In this document: in pieces, positions 7,651 to 25,515 of the stretch | Position numbering within the stretch: the stretch's first letter is position 1 | Layout of the letters: every line of letters starts with the position of its first letter | DNA from: a virus | Lineage: Duplodnaviria > Heunggongvirae > Uroviricota > Caudoviricetes | Length of the DNA stretch: 25,515 bases | Strand: one strand, 5' to 3' | IMG/VR virus record: IMGVR_UViG_2609459834_000009 | Coordinates: 1 to 25,515 of that record | Notes under the pieces: model-generated | Database searches by the model: none | Told to the model about the DNA's origin: nothing | The model's input: the letters and a program-made list of their open reading frames with translations, nothing else | Position numbers and translations under genes: made by a program

Positions 7651-7839
7651 ATGCAGGACTATTTTTTGGAGTCTTTGAAGCTCCAGCGCATTGATTTTTT
7701 TCTTAAGCTTGTAGCGGCTAGTGAGTGTAGTGATGAAGAGAAGGGGCTGGCTTTGCAGTGGGTTTCTGAACTGACAGATGAACTCATGGCAAAAATCAGA
7801 ACCCACGAATACAACCGCTCAATGGATGTCATCAGCTGA
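7651..7839 (+). CDS. Small SOS-regulated hypothetical protein (first gene of tum-like module)
   Basis: 62-aa ORF, ATG at 7651 with AGGAGG RBS; ORF-track start 7549 rejected because it would read through the LexA box. Confidence 0.5.
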   Translation: MQDYFLESLKLQRIDFFLKLVAASECSDEEKGLALQWVSELTDELMAKIRTHEYNRSMDVIS

Positions 7840-7849
7840 GGTGACTTTT

Positions 7850-8083
7850 ATGCGCATTGAAATAATGATCGATAAAGAGCAGAAGATTAGCCAGTCTACC
7901 CTGGACGCCCTTGAATCCGAGCTTTACCGCAATCTGCGCCCTATGTATCCCAAAACGGTAATTCGTATCCGCAAAGGTAGCTCTAACGGTGTAGAACTTA
8001 CCGGATTGCAACTGGACGAAGAAAGAAAACAAGTGATGAAAATTATGCAGAAGGTGTGGGAAGACGACAGCTGGCTGCATTAA
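7850..8083 (+). CDS. DinI-family protein
   Basis: 77-aa product MRIEIMIDKEQ...VWEDDSWLH with the DinI N- and C-terminal signatures (MRIE..., WE.D.W); GAGGTG RBS. Confidence 0.75.
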   Translation: MRIEIMIDKEQKISQSTLDALESELYRNLRPMYPKTVIRIRKGSSNGVELTGLQLDEERKQVMKIMQKVWEDDSWLH

Positions 8084-8306: not shown

Positions 8307-8378
8307 CGCGCGCCATGTGGTATGGAGATTGGATCTATTCATAACTTGATGTATAAAGTAGAAAAAAGCGGGGAGATT

Positions 8379-9302
8379 ATGAATAAAAAATTTACCGATG
8401 AGCAGCAACAACAGCTTATAGGACATCTCACAAAGAAAGGCTTCTATCGAGGAGCTAATATTAAAATAACCATTTTTCTATGTGGTGGTGACGTTGCTAA
8501 TCATCAATCTTGGCGTCATCAATTATCACAATTTTTAGCAAAGTTCAGTGATGTTGATATATTTTATCCAGAAGATCTATTTGATGATCTTTTGGCTGGT
8601 CAAGGGCAGCATAGCCTTTTAAGTTTAGAAAATATTCTGGCTGAAGCTGTCGATGTAATAATTTTATTTCCTGAAAGTCCGGGGTCTTTCACAGAGCTTG
8701 GTGCGTTCTCTAATAATGAAAACTTAAGGAGAAAGTTGATTTGCATTCAAGATGCAAAATTTAAATCAAAACGTAGCTTTATTAACTATGGTCCTGTTCG
8801 CCTGTTGCGTAAGTTTAATTCAAAATCTGTTTTGCGTTGTAGTTCAAATGAACTAAAAGAAATGTGTGATTCATCTATTGATGTTGCCAGAAAATTACGA
8901 TTATATAAAAAATTAATGGCATCTATTAAGCAGGTTAGGAAAGAAAATAAAGTATCAAAAGATATTGGAAATATATTATACGCAGAGCGGTTTCTATTGC
9001 CTTGTATCTATTTACTGGATAGTGTCAACTACCGCACACTGTGTGAACTAGCTTTTAAAGCGATAAAGCAAGATGATGTTTTATCTAAAATTATTGTTAG
9101 ATCCGTTGTTTCTCGTCTAATAAATGAACGAAAAATACTTCAAATGACTGATGGTTATCAGGTCACTGCTTTGGGGGCTAGCTATGTTAGGAGCGTCTTT
9201 GATAGAAAGACACTTGACCGATTGCGGCTTGAGATTATGAATTTTGAAAACCGTAGAAAATCAACATTTAACTATGATAAGATTCCGTATGCGCACCCTT
9301 AG
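8379..9302 (+). CDS. Retron effector protein (putative nucleoside 2-deoxyribosyltransferase-like N-domain plus C-terminal domain)
   Basis: 308-aa ORF in AT-rich DNA immediately upstream of msr-msd; its stop codon (TAG 9300-9302) lies inside the a1 repeat. Start ambiguous (ATG at 8322, 8349 or 8379). Confidence 0.7.
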   Translation: MNKKFTDEQQQQLIGHLTKKGFYRGANIKITIFLCGGDVANHQSWRHQLSQFLAKFSDVDIFYPEDLFDDLLAGQGQHSLLSLENILAEAVDVIILFPESPGSFTELGAFSNNENLRRKLICIQDAKFKSKRSFINYGPVRLLRKFNSKSVLRCSSNELKEMCDSSIDVARKLRLYKKLMASIKQVRKENKVSKDIGNILYAERFLLPCIYLLDSVNYRTLCELAFKAIKQDDVLSKIIVRSVVSRLINERKILQMTDGYQVTALGASYVRSVFDRKTLDRLRLEIMNFENRRKSTFNYDKIPYAHP

Positions 9303-9458
9303 CGAGAGGTTTATCATTAAGGTCAACCTCTGGATGTTGTTTCGGCATCCTGCATTGAATCTGAGTTACTGTCTGTTTTCCTTGTTGGAACGGAGAGCAT
9401 CGCCTGATGCTCTCCGAGCCAACCAGGAAACCCGTTTTTTCTGACGTAAGGGTGCGCA
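9290..9458 (+). ncRNA. msr-msd: Retron msr-msd non-coding RNA (template/primer for msDNA)
   Basis: Flanked by 12-nt inverted repeats a1 TGCGCACCCTTA (9290-9301) and a2 TAAGGGTGCGCA (9447-9458); internal msr hairpin AGAGGTT/AACCTCT and long imperfect msd stem around GGAGAGCATC-gcct-GATGCTCTCC; sits directly upstream of the RT gene. Matches my recollection of the Ec86 ncRNA. Confidence 0.85.
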
Positions 9459-9464
9459 ACTTTC

Positions 9465-10427
9465 ATGAAATCCGCTGAATATTTGAACACTTTTAGATTG
9501 AGAAATCTCGGCCTACCTGTCATGAACAATTTGCATGACATGTCTAAGGCGACTCGCATATCTGTTGAAACACTTCGGTTGTTAATCTATACAGCTGATT
9601 TTCGCTATAGGATCTACACTGTAGAAAAGAAAGGCCCAGAGAAGAGAATGAGAACCATTTACCAACCTTCTCGAGAACTTAAAGCCTTACAAGGATGGGT
9701 TCTACGTAACATTTTAGATAAACTGTCGTCATCTCCTTTTTCTATTGGATTTGAAAAGCACCAATCTATTTTGAATAATGCTACCCCGCATATTGGGGCA
9801 AACTTTATACTGAATATTGATTTGGAGGATTTTTTCCCAAGTTTAACTGCTAACAAAGTTTTTGGAGTGTTCCATTCTCTTGGTTATAATCGACTAATAT
9901 CTTCAGTTTTGACAAAAATATGTTGTTATAAAAATCTGCTACCACAAGGTGCTCCATCATCACCTAAATTAGCTAATCTAATATGTTCTAAACTTGATTA
10001 TCGTATTCAGGGTTATGCAGGTAGTCGGGGCTTGATATATACGAGATATGCCGATGATCTCACCTTATCTGCACAGTCTATGAAAAAGGTTGTTAAAGCA
10101 CGTGATTTTTTATTTTCTATAATCCCAAGTGAAGGATTGGTTATTAACTCAAAAAAAACTTGTATTAGTGGGCCTCGTAGTCAGAGGAAAGTTACAGGTT
10201 TAGTTATTTCACAAGAGAAAGTTGGGATAGGTAGAGAAAAATATAAAGAAATTAGAGCAAAGATACATCATATATTTTGCGGTAAGTCTTCTGAGATAGA
10301 ACACGTTAGGGGATGGTTGTCATTTATTTTAAGTGTGGATTCAAAAAGCCATAGAAGATTAATAACTTATATTAGCAAATTAGAAAAAAAATATGGAAAG
10401 AACCCTTTAAATAAAGCGAAGACCTAA
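9465..10427 (+). CDS. ret: Retron-type reverse transcriptase
   Basis: 320-aa product with RT motifs QGAPSSPKLANL and YADD, plus the retron-characteristic VTG motif (RKVTGLVI). Confidence 0.9.
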   Translation: MKSAEYLNTFRLRNLGLPVMNNLHDMSKATRISVETLRLLIYTADFRYRIYTVEKKGPEKRMRTIYQPSRELKALQGWVLRNILDKLSSSPFSIGFEKHQSILNNATPHIGANFILNIDLEDFFPSLTANKVFGVFHSLGYNRLISSVLTKICCYKNLLPQGAPSSPKLANLICSKLDYRIQGYAGSRGLIYTRYADDLTLSAQSMKKVVKARDFLFSIIPSEGLVINSKKTCISGPRSQRKVTGLVISQEKVGIGREKYKEIRAKIHHIFCGKSSEIEHVRGWLSFILSVDSKSHRRLITYISKLEKKYGKNPLNKAKT

Positions 10428-20186: not shown

Positions 20187-21081
20187 CCTTTCGCAGTTGC
20201 CTGCGCCGCAGATTGTGGATGTGCCGGACTTTGAGACGCTGCTTGCCGAACGCAAGGCAGAATTTGTGGCGCTTCATCCGAAAGATGAGCAGGAAGCAGT
20301 GATCCGCACGCTGGAACTGGAATCTGAACCCGTCACCAAATTGCTGCAGGAGAACGCTTACCGTGAGTTGCTTCTGCGCCAGCGCATTAACGAAGCCGCG
20401 CAGGCTGTGATGGTGGCTTACGCGATGGGCAGCGATCTTGACCAGCTCGCTGCCAACTACAACGTGAAACGCCTGACGGTGACGCCTGCTGATAATGACG
20501 CTGTGCCGCCCGTTGCAGCTGTGATGGAAAGCGATGAAGCGTTACGCCTGCGTGTGCCTGCAGCCTTTGAAGGGCTTTCAGTTGCGGGGCCAACTGCAGC
20601 TTATGAATTTCATGCCCAAAGCGCCGACGGTCGGGTGGCGGATGCCAGTGCAACCAGCCCGGCACCTGCAGAGGTGGTGCTGACTGTCCTTAGCCGCGAA
20701 GGCGATGGAACTGCAGAAAAAGACCTGCTGGACGTGGTGGAAAAAGCTCTGAACAGTGAGAACGTCCGCCCGGTGGCTGACCGTCTTACGGTTCGCAGCG
20801 CAGAAATCATCCCGTATCGCGTGGAAGCCACCATTTTTCTCTATCCGGGACCGGAAGCAGAGCCGGTAATGGCAGCGGCAAAAGCCAGCCTGCAGAAGTA
20901 CATCGCCAGTCAGACACGTCTTGGTCGGGATATTCGCCGTAGCGCCATCTTTGCCGCCCTGCATGTTGAGGGTGTGCAGCGTGTGGAGCTGGCTTCTCCT
21001 CTGGCGGATGTGGTCCTGAACAAAACACAGGCGGCATCATGTACGCAGTGGAGCGTAACCAACGGAGGAACGGATGAATAG
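20173..21081 (+). CDS. J: Baseplate assembly protein J (P2 gpJ family)
   Basis: 302-aa product from ATG at 20173 with AGGAG RBS; track start 20134 rejected. Confidence 0.85.
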   Translation: MAVIDLSQLPAPQIVDVPDFETLLAERKAEFVALHPKDEQEAVIRTLELESEPVTKLLQENAYRELLLRQRINEAAQAVMVAYAMGSDLDQLAANYNVKRLTVTPADNDAVPPVAAVMESDEALRLRVPAAFEGLSVAGPTAAYEFHAQSADGRVADASATSPAPAEVVLTVLSREGDGTAEKDLLDVVEKALNSENVRPVADRLTVRSAEIIPYRVEATIFLYPGPEAEPVMAAAKASLQKYIASQTRLGRDIRRSAIFAALHVEGVQRVELASPLADVVLNKTQAASCTQWSVTNGGTDE

Positions 21082-21679
21082 TCTGCTGCCGCCGGGTTCA
21101 ACACCACTGGAGCGCCGACTGGCGCAAACCTGCAGCGGGATTTCTGATCTGCAGGTGCCGCTTCGTGACTTGTGGAATCCGGCAACCTGTCCGGTCAGTT
21201 TCCTGCCTTATCTCGCCTGGGCGTTCTCTGTGGATCGCTGGGACGAGGGCTGGACAGAAAGCGTCAAGCGCCAGGTGGTGAAGGATGCTTTTTATATTCA
21301 TCAGCATAAAGGGACCACCAGTGCCGTGCGGCGGGTGGTGGAGCCGTTCGGCTTTCTGATTCGCATTATTGAGTGGTGGCAGACCGGAGAGGCACCGGGC
21401 ACGTTTCGCCTGGATATCGGCGTGCAGGACCAGGGCATCACTGAAGATACCTATCTGGAACTTGAGCGACTGATAAGCGATGCCAAACCATGTAGCCGCC
21501 ACATGATCGGCATGTCCATCAATCTGCAGACCAGCGGCCCGCATTGGGTGGGAGCCGCCAGCTATCTTGGCGAAGAAATCACGATCTATCCGTATATCAA
21601 CGAAACGATTATTTCCGGTGGCACCGCGCATGAAGGCGGGGCGGTCCATGTTATTGACACAATGAGAGTGAATCCATGA
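21074..21679 (+). CDS. I: Baseplate/tail protein I (P2 gpI family)
   Basis: 201-aa product, GGAGG RBS, overlap with J stop; conserved position between J and the tail fibre gene. Confidence 0.8.
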   Translation: MNSLLPPGSTPLERRLAQTCSGISDLQVPLRDLWNPATCPVSFLPYLAWAFSVDRWDEGWTESVKRQVVKDAFYIHQHKGTTSAVRRVVEPFGFLIRIIEWWQTGEAPGTFRLDIGVQDQGITEDTYLELERLISDAKPCSRHMIGMSINLQTSGPHWVGAASYLGEEITIYPYINETIISGGTAHEGGAVHVIDTMRVNP

Positions 21680-23415
21680 GCACAAAATTTTATACCCTGC
21701 TGACGGATATTGGCGCGGCGAAACTTGCCAGCGCCGCCGCGCTCGGTGTGCCGCTAAAAATTACCCATATGGCGGTGGGCGATGGCGGCGGAGTATTGCC
21801 AACGCCGGACGCAAAGCAGACGGCACTGGTAAATGAGAAACGCCGGGCTGCGCTGAATATGCTTTATATCGACCCGCAGAACAGCAGCCAGATTATTGCT
21901 GAACAGGTGATCCCTGAAAACGAGGGCGGTTGGTGGATACGTGAAGTGGGCCTGTTTGATGAGTCCGGGGCATTGATTGCCGTGGGAAACTGCCCGGAAA
22001 GCTATAAGCCGCAACTGGCTGAAGGCAGCGGGCGTACCCAGACCGTGCGCATGGTGCTGATTACCAGCAGTACGGACAATATCACCCTGAAAATCGACCC
22101 TGCTGTAGTGCTGGCAACCCGCAAGTATGTGGATGACAAGGCACTGGAGCTGAAGGTGTACGCGGATGATCAGATGGCAAAACATCTTGCCGCACCGGAC
22201 CCGCATTCACAGTACGCGCCAAAAGCCAGCCCGACATTTACCGGAACCCCCAAAGCGCCAACGCCAGCGGCGGGGAATAATACCACGCAGGTTGCGACCA
22301 CTGCGTTTGTACAGGCGGCACTGACGGACCTTATTAATGGTGCGCCAGCCACGCTGGACACGCTGAAAGAAATAGCCGCAGCCATTAACAATGATCCGAA
22401 TTTCAGTACCACCATTAACAATGCGCTGGCACTAAAAGCACCGTTGTCGAGTCCGGCACTCACCGGAACGCCAACAGCCCCCACGGCGGCGCAGTCGGTC
22501 AACAATACACAGATTGCCACTACGGCTTTTGTGAAATCGGCGATTGCAGGAATGGTGGGTTCTGCACCTGCTGCACTGGATACACTGAACGAACTGGCGG
22601 CGGCACTGGGGAATGATCCGAACTTTGCCACGACAATGCTTAATGCGCTGGCAGGTAAACAACCGCTGGACAATACGCTTACCAATTTGAGTGGAAAGGA
22701 TGTAGCTGGTCTTCTCACATACCTTGGTATTAAAAACGCATCAACAACACAGGTGGGTTTAGTCCGGTTAACGTCATCGCGGGTATCGGGTGCAGAGGAT
22801 ATTGCAGCCACAGCTAATGCTGTCGCGCAAAACTATACGGACATAAAATCTTTGCAAAACAAAACTCAGGATTCAACTACGACACAGAAAGGAATTGTTC
22901 AACTTACATCATCAAGGGTATCCGAATCTGAAACGCTTGCTGCAACAGCAAAAGCGGCAGCGATGAATTATGCGGATATTGTAGCTCTGCAAGGCAAGAC
23001 TAATGATGCAACCACTACAAACAAGGGAATTATCCGCGTATCTGATTCCAGAACATCAACAGAATCTGGTGTTGCTGCATCATCACTTGCTGCATCACAA
23101 AACTATTCAGATATGAAAGGGTTGTTTGGTCAATGCGGAATGAAATCTAGAAATCTCGGTGTCGTATACACCAACAGCCAGTCTTTCGCCATATTTGTAA
23201 GCGTCAATGCGGTGCTGTCTGACGGTAGTTCATTTCTGAGCGCCAACGTAAGCGTGGATGGTAATTCGGCTAATTTTCGCGGCTCTCAGACAACAAATCT
23301 TGCAGGGCAAAGAGCAACTATCGCATTCATGGTTCCTGCCGGTGCGACCTATATTGTGCAGCAGTTTTCAGGAACAGTGTCAGATGTTACCTGGGTAGAG
23401 GTGGATAAAAAATGA
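21676..23415 (+). CDS. H: Tail fibre protein H with internal repeats and an AT-rich C-terminal receptor-binding region
   Basis: 579-aa product; conserved P2-H-like N-terminus; two tandem ~72-aa repeats and three ~43-aa repeats; composition shifts to AT-rich after about 22670. Confidence 0.85.
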   Translation: MSTKFYTLLTDIGAAKLASAAALGVPLKITHMAVGDGGGVLPTPDAKQTALVNEKRRAALNMLYIDPQNSSQIIAEQVIPENEGGWWIREVGLFDESGALIAVGNCPESYKPQLAEGSGRTQTVRMVLITSSTDNITLKIDPAVVLATRKYVDDKALELKVYADDQMAKHLAAPDPHSQYAPKASPTFTGTPKAPTPAAGNNTTQVATTAFVQAALTDLINGAPATLDTLKEIAAAINNDPNFSTTINNALALKAPLSSPALTGTPTAPTAAQSVNNTQIATTAFVKSAIAGMVGSAPAALDTLNELAAALGNDPNFATTMLNALAGKQPLDNTLTNLSGKDVAGLLTYLGIKNASTTQVGLVRLTSSRVSGAEDIAATANAVAQNYTDIKSLQNKTQDSTTTQKGIVQLTSSRVSESETLAATAKAAAMNYADIVALQGKTNDATTTNKGIIRVSDSRTSTESGVAASSLAASQNYSDMKGLFGQCGMKSRNLGVVYTNSQSFAIFVSVNAVLSDGSSFLSANVSVDGNSANFRGSQTTNLAGQRATIAFMVPAGATYIVQQFSGTVSDVTWVEVDKK

Positions 23416-23780
23416 TAACAATGATGAAGTATTACAAAGATGAAAATAACGTCGTATATGCCTACGATGCGTATGGCACACAGGATGCTTTTATCAAAGA
23501 AGGGCTTGTGCCAATCACCAGAAGTGAGGCTATGGCAATTATTAATCCCCCACCGACTCATGAACAACTCATCCAGGCTGCTGAAAATGAGCGACAGCGA
23601 TTACTGTCCGCCGCTGATGCAATTATGCTCGACTGGCGCACAGAGCTGATGCTGGGTGAAATCAGCGATGCCAACAGAGCTAAACTTTCGGCGTGGCTTT
23701 TATATAAGAATCAGGTTAAGGCTGTTGATGTAACAACCGACCCTGAGCATGTTAACTGGCCTGTCATCCCGGAACTTTAG
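23412..23780 (+). CDS. G: Tail fibre assembly chaperone (gpG/Tfa family)
   Basis: 122-aa ORF immediately after H with ATGA overlap; AT-rich like the H C-terminus. Confidence 0.7.
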   Translation: MITMMKYYKDENNVVYAYDAYGTQDAFIKEGLVPITRSEAMAIINPPPTHEQLIQAAENERQRLLSAADAIMLDWRTELMLGEISDANRAKLSAWLLYKNQVKAVDVTTDPEHVNWPVIPEL

Positions 23781-23785
23781 CTGGT

Positions 23786-23971
23786 TTGGCTATTGCCAGA
23801 TCCAAAGGCCGGATTGGTGGGCGTAGACCGAAGTTTAGCGACGAGCAGTGGCAACAGATGGGAGCGCTCATAGCGGCAGGGAAATCACGGCGTTATGTTG
23901 CACGTATCTATAACGTTGGGCTATCAACCCTATATAAACGATTTCCTGTTACTGGCATTCAAACGAAATAA
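23786..23971 (+). pseudogene. C-terminal fragment of a Gin/Pin/Hin-type serine DNA invertase (HTH domain only)
   Basis: Translation LAIARSKGRIGGRRPKFSDEQWQQ...VGLSTLYKRFP matches the C-terminal DNA-binding domain of invertases; no catalytic N-terminal domain; no ATG (TTG in track); similarity begins about 23771, directly at the tfa stop. Confidence 0.6.
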
Positions 23972-24107
23972 TTTATTTAAAGAGTTATTTGTCTAATGTT
24001 GGAAGCCGCAGCCACGTCGTATGCAAGAACGTGCTGCGGCTGGCTGGAGAACTTTCGATAGTGCGAGTATTGAATGATTTCCAGCCGTTACCGATTTTAC
24101 GTGTTAA

Positions 24108-24356
24108 TTAGTGAACAAACCACTCGTCAGCAGATTCCCAGGTATCTTTCAGAGTCTCCTGAACAAAAGTTTTTGCAGAATCCTTATCTGCTGTGCGTGT
24201 AACAGAAAGGCCATCGTTGCTGGTGGCTTTTACGATCACCTCTACATCGTCATAACGTTTACTGATGCGTCGGGTTAATTCTTCCTTTAACGCATCCACA
24301 GCACCGGTTGGCATTTTAGTCATTTTTTCTTTGGCTATGCAGATTTCAATACGCAT
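24108..24356 (-). CDS. DinI-family protein (second paralog)
   Basis: 82-aa product [11 protein letters not shown]...[10 protein letters not shown], close to my recollection of E. coli DinI. Confidence 0.8.
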
Positions 24357-24369
24357 AAAAGTCCCTCTA

Positions 24370-24417
24370 TACTGTGTTTGTATACAGTATTATTTTTAAC
24401 TGTATAGATAAACAGTG
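24370..24417. promoter_or_regulatory. Two tandem LexA boxes upstream of the second dinI-like gene
   Basis: tACTGTgtttgtatACAGta (24370-24389) and aaCTGTatagataaACAGtg (24398-24417), both CTGT-N8-ACAG. Confidence 0.65.
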
Positions 24418-25515
24418 TCAAGAGGCCTTATTTCTGCTCCTTTGGAGCTCTTCAAAACGATTATGTAAAGATTTCGGATACAGTTCGGTATATACCTGCC
24501 ATAGCACGTTTAATGAACGATGCCCTGTAACCTGGGCGACTTCCTCAATACTAAAACCAGCCTCAAATAAGCGACTTGCCCCTTCTCTACGCAAATCATG
24601 GTATCGCAGATCTTTAATACCTAATTTGCTTCTTACCCTCTGGAATCCCGCAGTAACAGAAGTGCTGTTATATGGAAAAATGAATTCTGATTTTTTGGGT
24701 TGTCGTTGGACGATATCCCAGGCTTCCCCAAGCAAGGCTACTTTCATATGGTTGCCTTCCTTTTTACGTGGATCTTTCCTGTCTCTTACGAGTATGGATT
24801 TTTGTTCCTGATCGAGATCCTCCCATCGTAATCGGCATACTTCACCGATTCGCATACATGACCACACAGAAAATTTGAGGATATCAACGAACGGAATTTT
24901 TGAGCATTTATGTGTAGATCGTTGTTGAAGACCTTCAATGAGCATGTCCAGTTCATCAGATGCCGGTCTACGATTACGACGATTTGATTTACCAATTAAA
25001 CCAAGTTTAAGTAGATATGGACGAGCGGCTTTTGCTGGGTTTGATGTGTAATTAATTCCATATACAGGTTTGGCAGCATCCAGAACACTGCCAAGATAAC
25101 TAACATCGTGGCTAACTGTAGCTGGACCTGCACCAGCGTTGTTTCTTAGCCTGCAATGTTCAATTACGTCATTTTCTGTCAGTTCAGATAGTTTGATCGC
25201 GGAGATGTCACTATCCATAAGCAGTTCCAGCACATATCTTTTAGTACGGCCTGCTTTACCTCCGGCATTTGGGTCATTTAAATATTTGTGTAGTAAGTCA
25301 CGGACTGTAAGTCCGTCAACTGCATTTGATGATGGAATGCCATATAGATCTAATTCCATCACTTTCTGTGTGCCCCATGTTTTGGCATGAGCATGTTTAG
25401 GGAATGTTTTACTTTCCCTGTAAGTGATAACACCTTTTTCTTTGATAATCACATTACAGCGATAGCGTGGTGTGCCATCGGATTTTAGTCGTTTCTCTAT
25501 GTTATAGTACGCCAT
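24418..25515 (-). CDS. Tyrosine-type integrase of a second integrative element (start at window edge; may be N-terminally incomplete)
   Basis: 365-aa translation with phage-integrase C-terminal catalytic region (HDLRREGASRL, ...VYTELYP); the ATG at 25513-25515 is the last codon of the window. Confidence 0.75.
   Translation of the reverse strand: MAYYNIEKRLKSDGTPRYRCNVIIKEKGVITYRESKTFPKHAHAKTWGTQKVMELDLYGIPSSNAVDGLTVRDLLHKYLNDPNAGGKAGRTKRYVLELLMDSDISAIKLSELTENDVIEHCRLRNNAGAGPATVSHDVSYLGSVLDAAKPVYGINYTSNPAKAARPYLLKLGLIGKSNRRNRRPASDELDMLIEGLQQRSTHKCSKIPFVDILKFSVWSCMRIGEVCRLRWEDLDQEQKSILVRDRKDPRKKEGNHMKVALLGEAWDIVQRQPKKSEFIFPYNSTSVTAGFQRVRSKLGIKDLRYHDLRREGASRLFEAGFSIEEVAQVTGHRSLNVLWQVYTELYPKSLHNRFEELQRSRNKAS

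Follow-up and report, generated by a model that had tools for sequence, protein, structure and literature searches.

The closest described systems are the G segment of phage Mu, gene S and the C segment of phage P1 (and likewise the Min system of p15B), the gpH/gpG fibre genes of phage P2, and a set of E. coli prophages that switch their fibres by inversion. Gene S and the C segment are reportedly treated by Sandmeier, Iida and Arber in 1992 and in a 1994 review by Sandmeier. Din-type invertases contain a Fis-dependent enhancer in the 5' part of their coding region. Switching at 26-bp sites of the same form as the one described below has been demonstrated in E. coli prophages (PMC4134206, Table 3), and for strain EC958 the evidence is direct and read-level, with one prophage carrying a truncated invertase (PMC4134206). 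In cyanophage Pam3, the gp24-gp25 pair combines a TNF-like fibre tip with a Tfa-like chaperone, and the same work describes the modularity of Tfa (PMC9608196).

We analysed a window of 25,515 nucleotides of viral DNA, in which the fibre gene H belongs to a P2-like (Peduoviridae) prophage of E. coli, can be assigned to the gpH-type long tail fibres and is modular in build (Table 1). ORF and Pfam analysis places gpI (PF09684) upstream of H in the order V-W-J-I-H-G, with the Tfa gene (Caudo_TAP) after H. By BLASTP, the product is 48% identical to P2 gpH across 420 aligned columns, most densely over the N-terminal domain, which by analogy with its family would attach the fibre to the baseplate. 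The C-terminal tip is a putative small jelly roll of C1q/TNF-like fold, assigned from a low-confidence monomer model, and most likely binds the receptor. No NCBIfam model matches H or Tfa.

Table 1. Features at the fibre locus and the right end of the window
Feature	Position	Strand	Details
gpH-type long tail-fibre gene, 579 aa, intact	21676-23415	+	ORF; Pfam PF12571 and PF03406; PHROG tail-fibre families
N-terminal tail-collar fibre domain, aa 1-150	21676-22125	+	PF12571, E 6.7e-65, 218 bits vs cut-off 23
Two 74-aa 'b'-type shaft repeats, aa 185-257 and 259-331	22228-22446 and 22450-22668	+	constant segment
Predicted 26-bp Din-family invertase crossover site TTCTCACATACC-TT-GGTATTAAAAAC	22712-22737		central TT 22724-22725; encodes LLTYLGIKN
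Three 45-aa 'a'-type repeats (PF03406), aa 356-400, 401-445 and 446-490	22741-23145	+	first part of variable cassette
C-terminal tip domain, aa 491-579	23146-23412	+	putative trimeric jelly-roll receptor-binding knob
tfa (gpG/U-type tail-fibre assembly chaperone), 122 aa	23412-23780	+	ATGA overlap with H stop; in cassette
Deletion joint J2, 8-bp microhomology GAACTTTA	23772-23779		TAG stop created at 23778-23780
Serine DNA-invertase 3' remnant, codons 125-188 (HTH_7 only)	23780-23971	+	PF02796
DinI-like gene	24108-24356	-	Pfam DinI
Tyrosine integrase	24418-25515	-	right end of dusA-integrated prophage, not P2-like

The first-pass annotation had proposed a conserved N-terminus and a horizontally exchanged C-terminal host-specificity cassette, and both proposals are borne out by the way in which homology to other genomes breaks within H. 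Homology to P2-like sequences ends at 22725-22739, both in over 200 E. coli genomes and in some 180 phage records; hundreds of P2-like prophages are 95-99% identical to the window as far as 22728-22739, where the match breaks off abruptly. In the unrelated prophages E2348/69 and EcPF16, the match instead begins at 22712/22713 and continues onward, and homology to relative L013 changes strand at 22721-22725. The downstream 1 kb, consisting of the variable part of H and tfa, recurs in E. coli, Salmonella and Citrobacter behind N-terminal scaffolds of at least seven unrelated kinds, and tfa is co-inherited with the variable part in every context examined.

Tfa matches PF02413 over aa 45-121 (E 1.4e-18), Mu U (5yvq_B) with E 5e-4, and the C-terminal part of P2 gpG at 29% identity. 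The only stretch of tfa that is conserved in other E. coli tfa genes is nt 23543-23773. The gene fits the Tfa arrangement, in which a gene immediately downstream of the fibre gene encodes a conserved C-terminal domain and a fibre-binding N-terminal domain that varies, and its product would be the cognate chaperone that folds the tip.

The junction of the constant and variable parts of H is the 26-bp sequence at 22712-22737, which scores 14/18 against the crossover consensus and is the sole site at or above that score in the window, where shuffled windows average 0.125 such sites. No second crossover site at 14/18 or better is present in the window, and degenerate matches at 12-13/18 are scattered, none meaningfully placed. 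The inner half of the site fits the consensus poorly (6/9 specified positions). In position the site is the homologue of the left inverted-repeat arm in the 500365-1-like relatives 500465-1 and Cartapus. Its right half, GGTATTAAAAAC, is joined to three different left halves, namely TTCTCACATACC in the window and L001, CTCTCGAAAACC in E2348/69 and TTCTCAAAAACA in EcPF16, and the 60-nt flanks of the half-sites agree closely on one side (57-60/60 identities) and poorly on the other (9-22/60). We read 22712-22737 as a crossover site for a Din-family serine invertase of the Gin/Cin/Pin/Hin type, which would have catalysed these exchanges.

The same cassette is found inverted in some P2-like prophages. 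In 500465-1, Cartapus and the dusA-type prophages, exactly two inverted sites bracket tfa, tfa' and H'v, followed by the invertase. Among P2-like prophages, a single cassette lies in one orientation or the other, and the half-sites at its two ends are exchanged in an exactly reciprocal way, a pattern seen in these relatives and not in the window. L001, L008 and L009 are in the ON state, each with one cassette and without an alternative set, and L013, L014 and the class of 243-aa ORFs (P0001/P0023/P0058) are in the OFF state. In L009 (ON) the constant part of H, Hc, is followed by TTCTCACATACC TT GGTATTAAAAAC, the cassette, CTGTTCGAAACG AA CGTTTAAGAAAA and the invertase; in L014 (OFF) the reverse-complemented invertase is followed by TTTTCTTAAACG TT GGTATTAAAGAC, the cassette, CTGTTCGAAACG AA GGTATGCGAGAA and the reverse-complemented Hc. 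The constant-part ORF of L013 ends with LLTYLHLIL and a stop codon. In P2-like relatives with an intact invertase, the cassette would flip between ON, with constant and variable parts fused, and OFF, with the constant part truncated. Annotators should note that 243-aa ORFs labelled 'tail fiber protein' or 'integrase' are OFF-state fragments. Some relatives carry an acyltransferase moron within the invertible DNA.

The window itself has neither an alternative variable part nor tfa', as judged by the lack of a minus-strand fibre or tfa ORF at 23400-24100, and it lacks an intact invertase. The remaining codons correspond to aa 125-188 of the invertase of dusA-type prophages, which is 188 aa long when intact, and DNA identity to those prophages is 99.3-99.8%. 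This remnant marks the locus as a decayed invertible segment of the Mu G or P1 C type, a class that also includes e14 P and p15B Min. Joint J2 fuses the end of tfa to invertase codon 125. Its parental sequences are CCGGAACTTTA followed by AACC (L009, L001 and L008) and GAGCGAACTTTA followed by GCTGG (L007), and the fused form is found in the window and in E2348/69. The crossover site that follows tfa in L008 and L009 is deleted in the window. The microhomology-mediated deletion took out the terminator together with the second crossover site, and also the promoter of the invertase and its codons 1-124, which encode the catalytic domain. With the second site, promoter and catalytic half lost, the switch is dead and locked ON. 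A scan of 21000-24500 gave promoter and terminator counts no higher than in shuffles and no terminator after tfa, which fits the loss by deletion of the hairpin terminator that L001, L008 and L009 naturally have. An invertase event at a quasi-site was also considered for J2, but the two parental sequences show no resemblance to the crossover consensus, and we therefore prefer plain microhomology.

After tfa, the window runs through the invertase remnant, DinI and the dusA-type integrase to dusA, whereas the relatives have FI-T downstream. The DinI-integrase block adjoins dusA in 696 E. coli genomes, and the source contig past the window is identical at 191 of 192 positions into the dusA 5' end. 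As assembled, the window lacks the P2 genes from tail sheath to D (sheath FI, tube FII, E/T/U/D and Ogr), so that the prophage in this form cannot build tails; the missing tail module could be an assembly artefact. Neither this loss nor the invertase remnant had been recorded in the first-pass annotation.

It is possible, although in our view doubtful, that the link between P2-like and dusA sequence from 23780 onward is a chimera of draft short-read assembly, formed via two 1-kb copies of the cassette, and that the fibre gene in reality belongs to a P2-like prophage that is complete. The sequence comes from a draft contig whose end lies 104 nt inside dusA, and the whole window is present in 0 of 5,426 complete E. 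coli genomes, none of which has the constant/variable joint (J1) together with J2. The best match, 23AR0998, covers positions 1-23779 and has an H that differs by 3 aa, within a P2-like prophage that is complete and includes the tail genes. In addition, the attachment site of the P2-like prophages, beside rcdA/ybjJ, is not adjacent to dusA; on the K-12 map the two loci are about 1.26 Mb apart. However, finished genomes contain each joint singly (23AR0998 has J1, E2348/69 has J2), assemblers tend to break at repeats and not to bridge them, and the contig is recorded in 2 samples. We offer only tentatively the suggestion that the cassette and crossover site act beyond host range as portable joints that rearrange prophages and chromosomes. 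A P2-like prophage near rcdA would then have fused in vivo with the right end of a dusA prophage at the cassette or site, and the single-cassette segment of the relatives would be an ON/OFF switch for the fibre tip.

How the joints at 22712-22737 were made allows for a second explanation, in which ordinary homologous or short-homology recombination (RecA or a phage Rad52-like function) acted within the conserved YLG motif and the invertase site is incidental. The site is the sole sequence common to the scaffolds, so any homology-dependent process would map there too. SNP phasing inside the cassette, compared with L001, L002, L003, L008 and L009, also gives a patchy pattern, and such mosaicism of the cassette itself points to homologous exchange between cassette copies. 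As precedent, relaxed homologous recombination between phages and defective prophages has been documented (PMC3945230). Nevertheless, we consider this explanation of the joints unlikely, since the scaffold classes share only about 8-14 bp of identity and exchange falls on the central dinucleotide at both cassette ends, with three outer halves per side. In addition, the reciprocal ON and OFF products are predicted by site-specific inversion and not by homologous recombination. Exchange at a Din-family crossover site is the reading that we retain for the joints.

The repeats described in the first-pass annotation, two of about 72 aa and three of about 43 aa, are real, but their periods are 74 and 45 aa, respectively. 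They correspond to the 'b' and 'a' elements that the 1992 annotation of phage P1 gene S records (GenBank M81956). The b pair is identical at 45/73 positions (62%), with a BLOSUM62 score of 231 against a shuffle mean of 35 (sd 6.5; z=30), and each copy follows the consensus SPxLTGxPTAPT..TQIATTAFV..LDTLxELAAAlgNDPNF, present twice in gpH. Identities within the a triplet are 28/45, 18/41 and 16/38 (range 42-62%; z = 21, 16 and 14 in the shuffle test), and PF03406 recognizes two stretches of gpH (E 3.7e-11). The b repeats are 81% identical in amino acids to b1/b2 of P1 (repeat_region features in M81956), and the a repeats match Mu gpS (5yvq/8ju3) as well as the a elements of P2 and P1. The two arrays flank the crossover site, with the 74-aa repeats in the conserved part and only the 45-aa repeats moving with the cassette.

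These duplications are old, because nucleotide identity between copies is low (62-63% for b1/b2 and a1/a2, about 48% for pairs with a3) and identity at third codon positions is 36-40% throughout. The number of a units in relatives of the cassette is 2 or 3, and the difference is a clean in-register 45-aa indel, as would be expected of a hypervariable array that is still expanding by recent tandem duplication or slippage. We consider such recent expansion very improbable given the divergence of the copies, 48-63% identical in DNA, and the presence of the same a and b elements in P1, P2 and Mu. Neither TRF nor a seed-based repeat finder detects a relevant repeat at the DNA level, and the repeats are visible in protein only.

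Base composition is far from uniform across the locus. The constant part of H (21676-22710) has a GC content of 55.4% and a GC3 of 57.7%, whereas the variable part (22738-23415) has 45.0% and 36.3%; tfa is at 45.8% and the late-gene backbone at 56.9% (chi-square p=6e-6 for the constant part versus the cassette plus tfa). A shift to AT-richer sequence from about 22670 through tfa had been noted before, and the fall in GC from 55% to 45% and in GC3 from 58% to 36% close to 22700 confirms it, except that the boundary is discrete (22712-22737) and not a gradual drift. The maximum-likelihood change point is 22612 (support interval 22493-22712), and GC stays low as far as the window end. In all P2-like and dusA-type relatives compared, the variable segments have 43-48% GC and the backbones 55-58%; the backbone of E2348/69 has only 48%. 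That the low GC reflects local selection or a Ser/Thr/Asn/Ala-rich fibre composition and not foreign origin is scarcely credible: S, T, A and N are abundant in the 45-aa repeats and GC at codon positions 1+2 also falls slightly (0.54 to 0.49), but the drop lies mostly at synonymous third positions (GC3 0.58 to 0.36, where equal GC3 would be expected), the step coincides with the homology breakpoint, and cassette GC is constant across backbones of different GC.

We propose, with a probability of about 85%, a model in which gpH is ordered as collar domain, two b shaft repeats, crossover site and lower-GC cassette, the cassette comprising three a repeats, the tip and its cognate Tfa. The cassette would be drawn from a pool common to different myovirus and lambdoid prophages, and its junction with any one scaffold would fall precisely on the central dinucleotide of that site. 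The locus is a clear example of a long-known route of phage host-range swapping and not a new kind of system, and it leaves the knowledge of tail-fibre evolution unchanged. What it provides is a base-pair-resolved case of temperate phages trading host-range determinants, in which one cassette of tip and chaperone has spread over many fibre scaffolds, with every junction at the centre of the invertase site, and occurs in both orientations in relatives and fossilised in the window. It also defines exact module boundaries at which fibres of the P2, P1 or Mu type, or tailocins, can be engineered, by swapping between YL and GIK and keeping tfa with the tip.

Comparison with the known systems places these features in context. 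Pam3 has no detectable sequence similarity to the window, whose tip fold is a low-confidence monomer model. The Mu G segment (S/U, S'/U', Gin; 5yvq, 8ju3, 9ki1) likewise encodes a myovirus fibre, made of a constant part, gix and a variable part, along with its Tfa chaperone; gpS 109-194 aligns with the a repeat, and the C-terminal part of Mu U with Tfa. However, similarity is weak (E 4e-4 to 5e-4), the tips are unrelated by sequence, and the switch in the window is inactivated. P2 (NC_001895) shares the operon position, the collar domain and the Tfa C-terminal domain, and its gpH carries one b and two a elements, whereas the last 300 aa of gpH and the N-terminal domain of Tfa have no relationship to their counterparts in the window. 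In the NC_001895 region compared, no invertase gene lies between G and fun(Z), and at the corresponding position in gpH P2 has only the motif EYLGLQE, which may be read from its sequence as a vestige of the crossover site.

In 500465-1 (Wadgaonvirus), Cartapus (Elveevirus) and EC958 Phi1/2/4 (PMC4134206), the constant DNA is 96-99% identical to the window up to the crossover core. These prophages have two alternative cassettes and an intact invertase, unlike the window with its one cassette, one site and HTH remnant; in EC958 Phi4 the truncated invertase has lost the HTH (PMC4134206), whereas in the window the catalytic domain is lost. P1 differs in its order, a0-a1-b1-b2-cix-Sv compared to collar-b-b-cix-a-a-a-tip, and the window has a P2-type N-terminus and is without a second site, an S'v/U' set and an intact invertase. 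Like P1 (gene S, C segment, Cin; also p15B Min), however, the window has 74-aa b1/b2 elements in its constant part, PF03406-type a elements, and a 26-bp cix at the constant/variable junction that encodes YLG (TTATCCAATACC TT GGTTTAAGAGAA in P1, TTCTCACATACC TT GGTATTAAAAAC in the window), and in both the variable part moves with its own assembly gene.

The window is a P2-like prophage of E. coli in which the tail-fiber gene H joins a constant part to a variable part that, together with tfa, differs in composition from the rest of the late region. GC content falls from 55.4% (GC3 57.7%) in the constant part to 45.0% (GC3 36.3%) in the variable part and 45.8% in tfa, and the constant part differs significantly from the cassette plus tfa (chi-square p=6e-6), with a maximum-likelihood change point at 22612 (support interval 22493-22712). 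In 1-kb windows the late-gene backbone stays at 55-61% throughout, so the AT-richness proposed in the first-pass annotation from distal H through tfa is upheld. The drop lies mainly at third codon positions, which speaks against an artifact of amino-acid composition. In the P2-like and dusA-type relatives compared, the variable or invertible segments likewise have 43-48% GC on backbones of 55-58% (the E2348/69 backbone has only 48%), and AT-richness is therefore a trait of a shared cassette pool, not of this locus alone.

Homology searches locate the joint. With 21074-24400 as the megablast query, ~180 phage records, together with thousands of places in E. coli, match at 95-99% from gpI to 22728-22739, where the match ends; with the whole window as query, >200 genomes match 1-22725/22728. 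The segment 22740-23780 is uncommon: a search of 5,426 complete E. coli genomes finds at least 80% of it in only 9, and it is in no phage record. Cassette carriers have unrelated upstream DNA, namely a non-P2 myovirus-type prophage at argW in E2348/69 (homology from 22713), a different P2-like lineage in EcPF16 (from 22712) and a lambdoid remnant in strain S1. At the protein level, at least seven unrelated N-termini from E. coli, Salmonella and Citrobacter carry the cassette, all joining it at ..LGIK(N/D/E)ASTTQ... The breakpoint and the same tip on unrelated scaffolds bear out the earlier proposal of an exchanged C-terminal host-specificity cassette.

Some variation among the copies is also visible. 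H differs from that of the complete prophage in E. coli 23AR0998 at three residues (V436Q, T447P, S526N). Of six cassette copies, the window's alone has three clustered substitutions at 23250-23253 (codons 525-526), which turn N526 into S in the tip domain, where homologues have N, T or S; residue 526 may be a surface or receptor-contact position. In E2348/69, the fiber gene with the cassette (L002 5648-6217) carries a pseudogene annotation (C-terminus missing), and homology to the window stops at 24117, just before DinI.

The two homology classes overlap in TTCTCACATACC-TT-GGTATTAAAAAC, which is very probably an invertase crossover site. With a cut-off of 14/18, the Din consensus TTNTCNNAAACCNNGGTTTNNGANAA matches nowhere else in the window (shuffles, 0.125 per window). 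Exactly two matches occur in each of the closest intact relatives, phage 500465-1, phage Cartapus and dusA-type prophages: one at the homologous H position and the other just upstream of a DNA-invertase gene, which together bracket tfa, tfa' and an inverted H'v. For the 60 nt left of the site, identity is 57-60/60 with the P2-like class and 9/60 with the cassette carriers, and right of it the pattern is reversed. The inner half-site GGTATTAAAAAC has three alternative outer partners (TTCTCACATACC, CTCTCGAAAACC and TTCTCAAAAACA). At the other cassette end in three relatives with constant and variable parts fused (ON; L001, L008 and L009), the inner half CTGTTCGAAACG likewise meets three outer halves (CGTTTAAGAAAA, CGTTTTGGAAAA and CCTTTTTAAAAC), and every join falls at the central dinucleotide. 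Published sites of the same form in prophages of E. coli EC958 switch in PacBio reads (PMC4134206, Table 3).

Both orientations of the cassette occur in relatives. In the P2-like prophage of GCA_052284135.1 (L013), the constant-part ORF ends in ..LLTYLHLIL and a stop, the cassette is inverted beside the invertase, and the strand of homology to the window changes at 22721-22725. The order in contig L014 is the invertase (reverse complement), TTTTCTTAAACG TT GGTATTAAAGAC, the variable part of H and tfa, followed by a terminator, CTGTTCGAAACG AA GGTATGCGAGAA and the constant part of H (reverse complement). This arrangement is precisely reciprocal to the ON order in L009, as predicted for serine-invertase strand exchange at the central 2 bp, and the reciprocity is the best evidence for 22712-22737 as a true crossover site. 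Since the segment of these relatives has one fiber cassette only, it behaves as an ON/OFF switch; for the L009 type, the OFF product is predicted to comprise aa 1-350, the constant part, followed by RFEQEE. One class of ORFs, 243 aa long (MMPVSCYLCIFLNVGIKD...), is the cassette read in the OFF orientation. Such 243-aa 'tail fiber protein' entries, and the names 'integrase' or 'head decoration protein' that sources give to several database copies of the tip, are annotation artifacts of invertible segments.

Additional genes accompany the segment in some relatives. In L013 (7126-8190) and in E. coli S1 (L003 6026-7090), tfa faces a convergent Acyl_transf_3 gene, which is an O-antigen-acetylase-like moron. 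In L013 this gene sits inside the invertible segment, so inversion would alternately connect the fiber tip or put the acyltransferase downstream of a truncated constant part. The prophage of E. coli 23AR0998 (L001 10876-13824), which is the complete relative closest to the window, has two invertase genes, dusA-type r1 and P2-type r2, flanking two DinI-like genes, a hypothetical gene and a hemerythrin-domain gene; this block, which separates tfa from the tail-sheath gene, resembles foreign DNA taken up between crossover sites.

In the window, a microhomology deletion has locked the cassette ON. In L001, L008 and L009, the tfa stop is followed by ~100 bp with a hairpin terminator, the second site and the invertase. 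In the window, the tfa end ...CCGGAACTTTA directly abuts GCTGGTTTGGCT..., codon 125 of the 188-aa invertase. The parental tfa end continues from CCGGAACTTTA into AACC, and the parental invertase interior (L007) from GAGCGAACTTTA into GCTGG; because both parents have GAACTTTA in common, the joint is a microhomology deletion, which also generates a TAG stop. The invertase remnant is the HTH_7 domain only, and the catalytic domain, promoter and partner site are absent. Hin, Gin and Cin have a recombinational enhancer in the 5' coding region of the invertase, and by analogy the enhancer would be lost here too. The identical joint is present in E2348/69, so it is older than the present arrangement and moved along with the cassette.

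Positions of features in the window
Feature	Position	Strand	Remark
Integrase	1-1209	minus	P2-like
DinI-family gene	7778-8083	+	P2-like early region
Retron island	8322-10427	+	between gpA/DinI and portal gene
H	21676-23415	+	tail-fiber gene, after I; intact 579-aa ORF
Constant part of H	21676-22710	+	
Crossover site	22712-22737		
Variable part of H	22738-23415	+	
tfa	23412-23780	+	directly after H
Deletion joint	23772-23779		
dusA-type prophage end	23781-25515		
DinI-family gene	24108-24356	-	dusA-type prophage end

An exact protein match places H on contig JNPE01000026.1 (177 kb, draft) of assembly GCA_000703505.1. The integrase is followed by the CI repressor, Dam-type methyltransferase, gpA replication protein and retron island, then by portal, terminase, capsid, lysis genes, R, S, V, W, J, I, H and tfa. 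The AT-rich island (GC 35-39%) carries a type II-A retron pair that combines an NDT effector (PADLOC NDT_II-A, E 4e-94) with a reverse transcriptase (RT_II-A, E 7e-128; Pfam RVT_1), and we interpret the island's position as the P2 defense hotspot. DinI genes adjoin invertases in relatives too.

Over the last stretch of the window, 23781-25515, identity to the right end of a dusA-integrated prophage (invertase, DinI, integrase) is 99.3-99.8%; the block is found in 696 complete E. coli genomes. The source contig runs 191/192 identical into the dusA 5' end (L010 13841-14032) and then ends, 104 nt into dusA. In relatives, the fiber region is followed by the P2 genes FI, FII, E, T, U, D and ogr, none of which is present here. 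A P2-like integrase is normally beside rcdA/ybjJ, not next to dusA, and we take these loci to be ~1.26 Mb apart on the K-12 map. The strain possibly holds a real fusion or inversion between two prophages sharing the cassette; alternatively, the draft assembly possibly bridged two cassette copies. As assembled, the prophage is a tail-less hybrid.

Two repeats of ~72 aa and three of ~43 aa had been described in H, and both sets are real, with slightly longer periods of 74 and 45 aa. The first pair (aa 185-257 and 259-331) is identical at 45/73 positions, with a local alignment score of 231 versus 35 +/- 6.5 for shuffles (z=30). The later units (aa 356-400, 401-445 and 446-490) are 62%, 44% and 42% identical (z = 21, 16 and 14 versus shuffles). 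DNA-level repeat searches detect none of them, and the copies have 48-63% nucleotide identity, 36-40% at third codon positions, which argues for old duplications kept by protein-level selection. Cassette homologues have three or two 45-aa copies, with a clean in-register 45-aa indel between …NYTDIK and ALQGK… in the alignment (window 22741-23145), so shaft length varies via unequal exchange between repeats.

In the most likely model, the collar domain would anchor the trimeric fiber to the baseplate, and the b and a repeats would make up the shaft. In Tfa, a specific N-terminal part that is very short, at 44 aa, precedes the conserved PF02413 part at the C-terminus. This layout fits the published model in which a variable N-terminal domain grips the fiber and conserved C-terminal helices drive trimerization (PMC9608196); it also accounts for the constant co-inheritance of tfa and tip.

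The 74-aa units are 'b' elements as in phage P1 gene S: they have 81% aa identity (tblastn) to GenBank M81956, whose 1992 annotation labels 'repeated element b1' and 'b2', 222 nt each, in constant segment Sc immediately before the Sc/Sv boundary. The 45-aa units are 'a' elements (Pfam PF03406), found also in P2 gpH, P1 S and Mu gpS. The module order is collar-a-a-b-tip in P2 gpH and a0-a1-b1-b2-cix-Sv in P1 S, whereas it is collar-b-b-site-a-a-a-tip in H; the building blocks are thus known and the arrangement alone is particular.

Taken together, the initial observation and its interpretation are correct, and our analysis adds the exact junction, the cassette as an invertible unit with both states in relatives, and the mechanism locking it ON in the window. 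The phenomenon itself is textbook: work of the early 1990s on P1, P2, Mu and p15B already described mosaic tail fibers, a/b repeat elements and Din-invertase segments, and they have later turned up in E. coli prophages as well.
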